Source: a virus
Taxonomy: Duplodnaviria > Heunggongvirae > Uroviricota > Caudoviricetes
IMG/VR virus record: IMGVR_UViG_2693429557_000009
Location: 1-6,714 of that record
Direction: 5' to 3' (one strand)
DNA length: 6,714 nt
Numbering within the stretch: the first letter of the stretch is position 1; the number at the start of each line of letters is the position of its first letter. A model generated the notes under the pieces. It had not been told where the DNA came from and did no database searches. It saw only the letters and a list, made by a program, of their open reading frames with translations. A program made the translations under genes and the position numbers. Below, one piece after another: positions 794-1,611 of the stretch.

Positions 794-1611
794 AACTGGA
801 AGATTTACCGAAATACTACTCCCCAAAATCCCCTTGCCTGACCGATGCATCGGCCTCAACGTCAAAAGATGCGCTGAGTATCACTGATGTGATGGCCGCG
901 CAGGGCATGACACAGAATCGGGCTGAGATGGGGTTTTCTGCGTTCCTGGGGAAAATGGGCATCAGTATGAATGACAGGGCGCGGGCAACAGAATTACTGG
1001 CAGATTATGCACTCAGTCGGTGCGATCGTGTGGCGGCGTTGAGAAAACTTCCGGCAGAAATAAAACCGGTAGTGATGCGCATTATGGCTTCGTACGCTTT
1101 TGAGGATTATGCCCGCAGCGCAGCGAGTAAAAAGCAGTGCCCTTGTTGCTATGGGGAAAAATTTATTGAAAGCGTAGTTTTTACAAACAAGGTCCAGTAT
1201 CCGGATGGTAAGCCGCCGGTATGGGCAAAGTGTACGAAAGGTGTGTATCCGTCTTACTGGGAAGAATGGAAAAAAGTCAGGGAGGTGGTAAAAGTTGCCT
1301 GTCCGGAGTGTGGCGGAAAGGGTGAGGTTTCCACCGCCTGTAAGGATTGCCGTGGGCGTGGTGTCGCCATTCATCGTGAAGAGTCGGTAAAACGTGGTAT
1401 GCCTGTTATCAGAGACTGCCAGCGTTGTGGTGGTCGTGGCTATGAAAGACTACCATCAACGGAGGCATTTAATGCTATATGCGAGGTGACAAACCAGATA
1501 ACACGCGCGTCATGGGAAAAAACAGTTAAGAAATTCTATGATGCGCTGGTGACCCGGTTTGATATTGAAGAAGCATGGGCTGAGCGGCAGTTAAAAAAGG
1601 TAACTAGGTAA
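790..1611 (+). CDS. Q: Late-gene antitermination protein Q (long Qin/QuuQ-like family) with DnaJ-type cysteine-rich zinc-binding repeats
   Basis: 273 aa ORF whose ATG overlaps the rusA stop (ATGA at 790-793); N-terminal LPKYYSPKSP...DALSITDVMAAQGM resembles the roughly 250 aa prophage Q proteins; CPCC plus three CxxCxGxG repeats (CPECGGKG, CKDCRGRG, CQRCGGRG); followed directly by a PR'-like promoter and terminator. Confidence 0.85.
   Translation: MKLEDLPKYYSPKSPCLTDASASTSKDALSITDVMAAQGMTQNRAEMGFSAFLGKMGISMNDRARATELLADYALSRCDRVAALRKLPAEIKPVVMRIMASYAFEDYARSAASKKQCPCCYGEKFIESVVFTNKVQYPDGKPPVWAKCTKGVYPSYWEEWKKVREVVKVACPECGGKGEVSTACKDCRGRGVAIHREESVKRGMPVIRDCQRCGGRGYERLPSTEAFNAICEVTNQITRASWEKTVKKFYDALVTRFDIEEAWAERQLKKVTR

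Follow-up and report, generated by a model that had tools for sequence, protein, structure and literature searches.

A second zinc-ribbon unit predicted at the arm hinge of a phi80-type Q antiterminator

The 6,714-nucleotide (nt) stretch of viral DNA analysed here, referred to as the window, comprises positions 1 to 6,714 of the IMG/VR record IMGVR_UViG_2693429557_000009 and carries the gene of a Q antiterminator with a cysteine-rich region. This region is best read as the arm of a late antiterminator of the Q-lambda family, phi80-Q subtype, in which a second zinc ribbon is inserted at the hinge and which works in a lambda-like manner; a probability of roughly 0.78 is assigned to this reading. 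The original prediction had placed cysteine-rich motifs in Q at 1138-1440, and translation gives exactly these coordinates. It had counted CPCC plus three CxxCxGxG repeats; the motifs are present, but CPCC is itself a CxxCxG unit (C117-x-x-C120-x-G122), and Q thus contains four repeats. In most homologues, motif 1 is a full CxxCxGxG, e.g., CDCCAGQG. The gene and its parts are as follows; the counts refer to 138 aligned homologues.

790-1611, plus strand: Q antiterminator gene, Q-lambda family, phi80-Q subtype; 273 amino acids (aa) plus stop, the ATG overlapping the rusA stop by 4 nt.
790-1128, plus strand: Q residues 1-113, corresponding to lambda Q 1-113, i.e., the N-terminal torus segment (lambda 1-44) and the first half of the helical body; aligned by phmmer without gaps, segment roles from PMC9388147, helices at 31-108 in the model.
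1129-1332, plus strand: Q residues 114-181, an insertion relative to lambda Q and predicted extra zinc ribbon (unit 1), with motif 1, a long beta-hairpin, and motif 2; from phmmer, AlphaFold, and hhalign.
1138-1161, plus strand: motif 1, CPCCYGEK (C117, C120, G122), a degenerate CxxCxGxG; C117 and C120 kept in 134/138.
1300-1323, plus strand: motif 2, CPECGGKG (C171, C174); kept in 136/138.
1333-1443, plus strand: Q residues 182-218, the arm as known from lambda (unit 2); its zinc ribbon comprises strand 192-194, helix 196-202, and strand 207-209; from the model, Foldseek, and a Pfam match of the fragment.
1339-1362, plus strand: motif 3, CKDCRGRG (C184, C187), corresponding to lambda Q C118/C121 by phmmer and Foldseek; kept in 137/138.
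1417-1440, plus strand: motif 4, CQRCGGRG (C210, C213), corresponding to lambda Q C144/C147 by phmmer and Foldseek; invariant, 138/138.
1444-1608, plus strand: Q residues 219-273, the second half of the body, corresponding to lambda 153-207 and carrying the helix-turn-helix; from phmmer and the model, lambda assignment from PMC9388147.

Membership in the family is well marked. The protein matches PF03589 (Antitermination protein Q) with 183.7 bits (E 6e-55, cutoff 26.7), and this is the sole Pfam family above threshold. All matches in a sequence search of solved structures are lambda Q (7ubm, 4mo1, 7ubj), and lambda Q structures are the top matches by fold as well as by sequence. In the phmmer alignment, Q 1-113 lies without gaps on lambda 1-113 (84 bits) and Q 182-273 lies, also gapless, on lambda 116-207, with a spacing from cysteine to cysteine of 26 residues in both proteins. 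The segment 114-181, about 68 residues long, is without a lambda Q counterpart in this alignment and is inserted after lambda residue 113. The helical body with its helix-turn-helix superposes on solved lambda Q. Yin et al. 2022 (PMC9388147) described the roles of the lambda segments. The helix-turn-helix body consists of residues 61-113 and 153-207, and the zinc-ribbon arm of residues 114-152. The arm swings onto positions 11-13, in the distal part of the Q-binding element, and its tip touches sigma region 4. The zinc-binding domain of beta' is contacted via residues 110-112, 117, and 122-126, and residues 1-44 refold into a nozzle or torus in the RNA-exit channel (PMC9388147). An insertion after residue 113 therefore falls exactly at the hinge between body and arm.

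An AlphaFold2 model of full-length Q was built with the 138-sequence alignment, and a model of the arm alone was also made. The full-length model has a predicted local distance difference test score (pLDDT) of 89.5 and a predicted template modelling score (pTM) of 0.76, and the secondary structure is identical in the two models. Residues 21-27 are of low confidence, like those of free lambda Q. Motifs 3 and 4 flank a predicted strand-helix-strand order, as in the lambda arm, and motifs 1 and 2 flank two predicted 12-residue strands (125-136 and 159-170; pLDDT 80-91) that carry a short helix at the tip. In a Foldseek search with the isolated arm, eight Q-lambda chains came first, over 42-43 columns at 37-38% identity, and the DNA- or RNA polymerase-bound chains fitted the model with a root-mean-square deviation (rmsd) of 1.7-2.0 Å. 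DnaJ-like proteins ranked after them, with E-values of 0.1-2 and an rmsd of about 10 Å. An identity of 38% corresponds to motifs 3 and 4 lying on the lambda arm, so that C184, C187, C210, and C213 adopt the geometry of the lambda zinc site in the model. The zinc-ribbon geometry to be expected of such a module in a predicted fold is thus found for motifs 3 and 4, and it is that of Q-lambda chains.

With motifs 3 and 4 placed on the lambda site, and with a long antiparallel hairpin that has motifs 1 and 2 at its base, C117, C120, C171, and C174 are left as a second site. The arm is thus predicted by the model to bind two zinc ions in tandem, one through motifs 1 and 2 and the other through motifs 3 and 4. 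The two units resemble one another: hhalign aligns unit 1 with unit 2 at a probability of 92% (E 5.6e-7) and places motifs 1 and 2 on motifs 3 and 4, respectively. To judge from this similarity, an old tandem duplication of the ribbon is the most likely origin of unit 1. A significant direct DNA repeat was not found within 1100-1480, which led to the rejection of a recent DNA duplication of the motifs and indicates that their repetition is old and lies at the protein level.

Some points weigh against this interpretation. BLASTP puts the first motif of lambda on motif 1 of Q and not on motif 3, and the mapping is therefore not unique at the sequence level. Most of the similarity between units 1 and 2 comes from the CxxCxGxG motifs as such. 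The pairing proposed for motifs 1 and 2, and with it their presumed binding of zinc, was deduced from the modelled secondary structure and by elimination, not from distances between cysteines. Finally, the length of the hairpin varies widely among homologues, which speaks against one conserved interaction surface on it. The ambiguity of the mapping is settled because the conserved spacing and the structural superposition both favour motifs 3 and 4 as the lambda ribbon.

Conservation of the motifs was followed in two protein collections. A search over 5.8 billion proteins gave 633 matches, and four CxxC units were present in 109 of the best 120 of them, which were inspected for motif count. Representatives of clusters at 50% identity gave 236 matches, and the full-length ones were aligned. 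The original prediction would have been weakened by repeats not conserved in homologues; each of the eight motif cysteines (C117, C120, C171, C174, C184, C187, C210, C213) is kept in 134-138 of the 138 aligned homologues, and they persist among full-length representatives to about 25-30% identity. Cysteines outside the motif positions are less well kept (C119 in 104/138, C148 not conserved). Motif 3 is shortened by one residue to CxCxGxG in many homologues, including phi80 Q, with the cysteine pair retained. The spacings between motifs 2 and 3 (13) and between motifs 3 and 4 (26) are fixed across the family, whereas that of motifs 1 and 2 varies between 14 and 63 aa, as a loop held shut at a single metal site would permit. 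Among the representatives retrieved with this query, single-ribbon, lambda-like proteins form a minority.

The gene is also widespread. It occurs in 2478 of 5426 complete Escherichia coli genomes (about 46%, at a coverage of at least 80%), with 1172 records at an identity of at least 99%, and its RefSeq name is 'antitermination protein'. The protein had been thought to define a distinct structural class of antiterminator. This idea has to be given up, as Q belongs to a subgroup of PF03589 that includes phi80 Q and is found in about 46% of complete E. coli genomes. It is an ordinary and abundant type of protein, long present in databases, and its motifs are under strong selection. Lambda Q, with its single Cys4 finger, had also been presented as a contrast; a second, probably zinc-binding unit is indeed absent from lambda, but the contrast was overstated, since the lambda finger is kept as motifs 3 and 4 and itself consists of two CxxCxGxG motifs.

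The DNA following the gene contains the signals of a late antitermination system, located by alignment with known phages and by a hairpin scan.

1614-1641, plus strand: PR'-like late promoter with -35 TTGATT (1614-1619), a 16-nt spacer with the presumed Q-binding element (TTTCCGGAATCTGTGG), and -10 TAAATT (1636-1641); aligned with lambda PR' and with the post-Q regions of phi80, HK225, and a Klebsiella phage.
1648-1656, plus strand: pause element AACGATGGG, located 6 nt after the -10; in the alignment, lambda PR' has the same sequence as its sigma-dependent pause element.
1689-1716, plus strand: hairpin with T run resembling an intrinsic terminator, a candidate tR' and target of Q; from the hairpin scan.

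The promoter matches the consensus at 8 of 12 positions and was overlooked by a simple consensus scan. The record of phi80 annotates a Q site, TCGCGGA, at the same place between -35 and -10, and the annotated terminators of phi80, HK225, and ES18 lie at the same relative position as the 1689-1716 hairpin. Behind their two-ribbon Q genes, phi80, HK225, and a Klebsiella phage have the same layout of promoter, pause element, and terminator, and they also share C(C/G)GAA directly after the -35, where the Q site of phi80 is annotated. Besides this C(C/G)GAA, no extra promoter element specific to phages with two-ribbon Q was found beyond the lambda layout in seven aligned post-Q regions. The Q gene thus stands directly upstream of a late promoter with a Q site, a pause element, and a terminator, and ahead of lysis genes (holin), as in the Q-lambda family.

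By analogy with lambda, in which the role of the sigma-dependent pause element is established (PMC9388147), Q of the window very probably works like lambda Q. It retains every functional part of lambda Q, namely the N-terminal nozzle segment, the helix-turn-helix body, and the Cys4 ribbon (C184, C187, C210, C213), to which the predicted second ribbon of about 68 residues, with C117, C120, C171, and C174 closing the long beta-hairpin, would be added at the hinge between body and arm. In the promoter at 1614-1641, Q would bind its own element, located between -35 and -10, would load onto RNA polymerase paused at AACGATGGG (1648-1656), and would enable it to pass the terminator at 1689-1716 and reach the late and lysis genes. 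Nothing in these results points to a new mechanism of antitermination.

The best guess for the extra ribbon is a rigid extension of the hinge through which contacts to the zinc-binding domain of beta', or to promoter DNA, are added or reshaped in the loading complex. The guess is based on the position of the insertion, which falls between lambda residues 110-112 and 117-126, the residues contacting the beta' zinc-binding domain. A stronger proposal, which is rather unlikely, is that the extra ribbon alters the loading of Q, by replacing part of a NusA-dependent step, by locking the arm in an extended, DNA-binding state, or by contacting the beta flap or sigma region 4. If loading were changed in this manner, the commonest type of Q in E. 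coli would load by a pathway not covered by the lambda structures.

Somewhat less probable still is that the extra ribbon is a tolerated and largely neutral decoration of the arm, stabilised by zinc, of which no specific contact is needed for loading or antitermination. Lambda-type Q functions without it (PMC9388147), and the promoters following two-ribbon Q genes are laid out as lambda PR'. Among homologues, the hairpin between motifs 1 and 2 can be as short as 6 or as long as about 55 residues, conservation is poor at its tip, and its pLDDT of about 80 is the lowest of the folded part. In contrast, the cysteines and flanking glycines of unit 1 are as conserved as those of the lambda-type ribbon, to about 25-30% identity, and parts of the hairpin (FxExxVFTNKV, GKPPxW, REVVxVxC) are shared with phi80 Q at an overall identity of 41%. 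The insertion also lies at the hinge, beside the residues through which lambda Q contacts the zinc-binding domain of beta'.

A likeness to the cysteine-rich domain of DnaJ/Hsp40 was at the centre of the original prediction. It holds at the level of the motif and of the single unit, but does not amount to a DnaJ domain. That the module is a true DnaJ-type domain, with two nested zinc sites in a V shape, derived from or homologous to that of the chaperone and giving chaperone-like or thiol-redox binding of proteins, is highly improbable. Four repeats of the CxxCxGxG type, the first of them degenerate in Q, are the defining count of the DnaJ domain, and PF00684 (DnaJ central domain) is matched by Q with an E-value of 1.9e-6. 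This family appears in the precomputed Pfam annotation of most homologues, made with a newer version of the model. In addition, the 13-residue distance from motif 2 to motif 3 resembles the single zinc site of anti-TRAP, itself a weak match. The PF00684 match of Q, however, is borderline: it reaches 28.4 bits, below the gathering cutoff of 32.7, and spans motifs 2-4 only. Lambda Q, whose single ribbon is composed of two CxxCxGxG motifs (CRDCHGTG, CGRCKGVG), matches the same model below threshold (23.1 bits, residues 113-152 on model positions 14-52), and phi80 Q scores 24.0. Since lambda Q alone gives the match, the likeness to DnaJ belongs to the ribbon unit of the whole family and not to a four-motif domain. 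The fragment 179-225 by itself scores 58 bits with PF03589 and 27.5 bits with PF00684, and only weak echoes of DnaJ and anti-TRAP are found in NCBIfam.

In the suggested profile comparison, made against E. coli DnaJ, hhalign reports a probability of 89% (E 2e-6); motifs 2, 3, and 4 of Q fall on motifs 1, 2, and 3 of DnaJ, and motif 1 of Q is left unmatched. The lambda-type ribbon thereby corresponds to the inner, hairpin-flanking zinc centre II of DnaJ. In the DnaJ structure 1EXK, the pairing of the motifs is nested, 1 with 4 and 2 with 3. The superposition of motifs 3 and 4 of Q on the lambda zinc site excludes both of these pairings in the model, and the V-shaped domain of two lobes that goes with the nested topology is not seen there. 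Nested pairing had also been considered for the anti-TRAP-like spacing of motifs 2 and 3 and for the BLASTP placement of the first lambda motif on motif 1, and was set aside because the arm model superposes on lambda via motifs 3 and 4. Neither a J domain nor a DnaJ C-terminal domain was detected in Q with Pfam. Capture of a DnaJ or chaperone domain was likewise rejected, on the sub-threshold score, the same match in lambda Q, and the superposition on the lambda ribbon.

More widely, the cysteine-rich domain of DnaJ/Hsp40 (PF00684; 1EXK, 7ZHS), BSD2, EMB2737, and anti-TRAP give matches to Q in sequence and fold that are weak but specific, with four CxxCxGxG motifs and motif pairs that flank a beta-hairpin. 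They differ from Q in their sub-threshold scores and in nested pairing, as compared with the tandem pairing predicted for Q, which lacks a J domain and is found within an antiterminator binding DNA and RNA polymerase. Some Q homologues bear the names 'chaperone protein DnaJ' or 'molecular chaperone', among them a protein of Serratia quinivorans (P0033) and one of Klebsiella phage ST13-OXA48phi12.4 (H31). Such names are evidently misannotations from the CxxCxGxG motifs and can be explained by a zinc-ribbon unit that is common to both kinds of proteins, while the domain is not.

Chance or a wrong reading frame was rejected, as the six frames of the window, about 13,400 codons in total, contain five CxxCxG matches, of which four fall within a 101-aa stretch of Q, whose open reading frame (ORF) is strongly homologous, and a minus-strand ORF at 994-1374, overlapping the cysteine-rich region, is without support. 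The PF03589 model, of 87 positions, matches both halves of Q, aa 24-111 (81 bits, within 790-1128 of the window) and aa 178-265 (1321-1584). An internal duplication of the whole protein was nevertheless rejected, the probability given by hhalign between the halves being 0.3%, and the double match looks like a quirk of the PF03589 model. PF27659.1 is precomputed on most homologues, where it is listed before PF03589, and may be a newer model of the N-terminal Q domain.

The two-ribbon architecture has several known relatives. The closest system is phi80 Q (gp17; NC_021190 ABF05_gp58, 269 aa), which has the same architecture over its full length at 41% identity and contains the inserted unit of motif 1, long hairpin, and motif 2; the module is 51% identical. 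This antiterminator is said to have been studied experimentally by Guo and Roberts in 2004. In phi80 as in the window, the Q gene directly precedes a promoter of the PR' kind, with an element containing CGGAA between -35 and -10, an AACG(A/C)TGGG pause element, and a terminator. The two proteins differ in motif 3, which is CxCxGxG in phi80 Q (CRCHGKG), and in motif 1, which is there a full repeat (CDCCDGGG). Their C-terminal helices, which presumably recognise DNA, diverge, and the sequences of the promoter spacers differ.

Lambda Q (PDB 4MO1, 7UBJ-7UBN) shares with Q of the window the N-terminal nozzle-forming region, the helical body with the helix-turn-helix, and the Cys4 zinc-ribbon arm, and downstream of its gene stand a promoter of the same kind, a pause element identical in sequence, and a terminator. 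It has one ribbon, four cysteines, and 207 aa, whereas Q of the window has about 68 more residues at the junction of body and arm, a predicted second ribbon, eight motif cysteines, and 273 aa. The sequences between -35 and -10 differ between lambda and the window, which implies a different DNA specificity.

QuuQ of the Qin prophage of E. coli K-12 and the Q proteins of Fels-1, ES18, and HK225 are members of the same subgroup, their matches covering the module at 36-55% identity. They are labelled quuQ or Q-like in phage records, and their hairpin lengths differ. The two-ribbon module is also found in Q of several Klebsiella and Salmonella phages. Some copies from cryptic prophages (P0192, P0176) appear to be truncated or to lack motif 1. 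One close homologue (P0001), of 337 aa and encoded on a single 1814-bp contig, has an extra N-terminal copy of the motif 1-hairpin-motif 2 unit and thus six CxxC motifs; this could be a real further duplication or an artefact of assembly or gene calling.

Solved structures of the Q-lambda family are all of the single-ribbon lambda protein, while the two-ribbon phi80 type occurs in nearly half of the complete E. coli genomes and next to late regions resembling those of Shiga toxin phages. The main value of the present results therefore lies in annotation and in the planning of structural work on two-ribbon Q. A full-text search, which did not take in Guo and Roberts 2004 and Vorobiev et al. 2014, yielded no paper on a two-zinc or DnaJ-like arm in Q or on the contribution of the extra ribbon.

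The neighbourhood of the gene, like all else, points to a working antiterminator of late genes in the style of lambda. Three ORFs follow one another at 162-419 (85 aa, coiled-coil-like), 419-793 (rusA), and 790-1611 (Q), the first two sharing base 419 and the last two overlapping in the ATGA at 790-793, which suggests that Q is translationally coupled to the upstream genes of the nin region. Downstream of the late signals of Q are a DNA methylase gene, three tRNA genes, a sialate-esterase-like gene, and a holin gene.

3280-3355: tRNA Met-CAT.
3363-3439: tRNA Arg-TCG.
3453-3529: tRNA Arg-TCT.
4038-5891: SASA/DUF1737 esterase gene (sialate-esterase-like).
5964-6257: holin gene.

Between the candidate tR' and the methylase gene lies a 65-aa ORF (1833-2030) without a Pfam match, at the end of which a second terminator-like hairpin is located (2017-2034). 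No similarity was found between this ORF and orf-64 of lambda, despite the same position. In matching phages carrying Shiga toxin 2 (Stx2), the toxin genes stxAB sit between the methylase and esterase genes, and the window has here a gap of only about 500 bp between the tRNA genes and the esterase gene (3530-4037). The window appears to be the late region of a toxin-negative prophage resembling Stx phages. The tRNA with the CAT anticodon may be of the Ile2 (lysidine) type, as in Stx phages.
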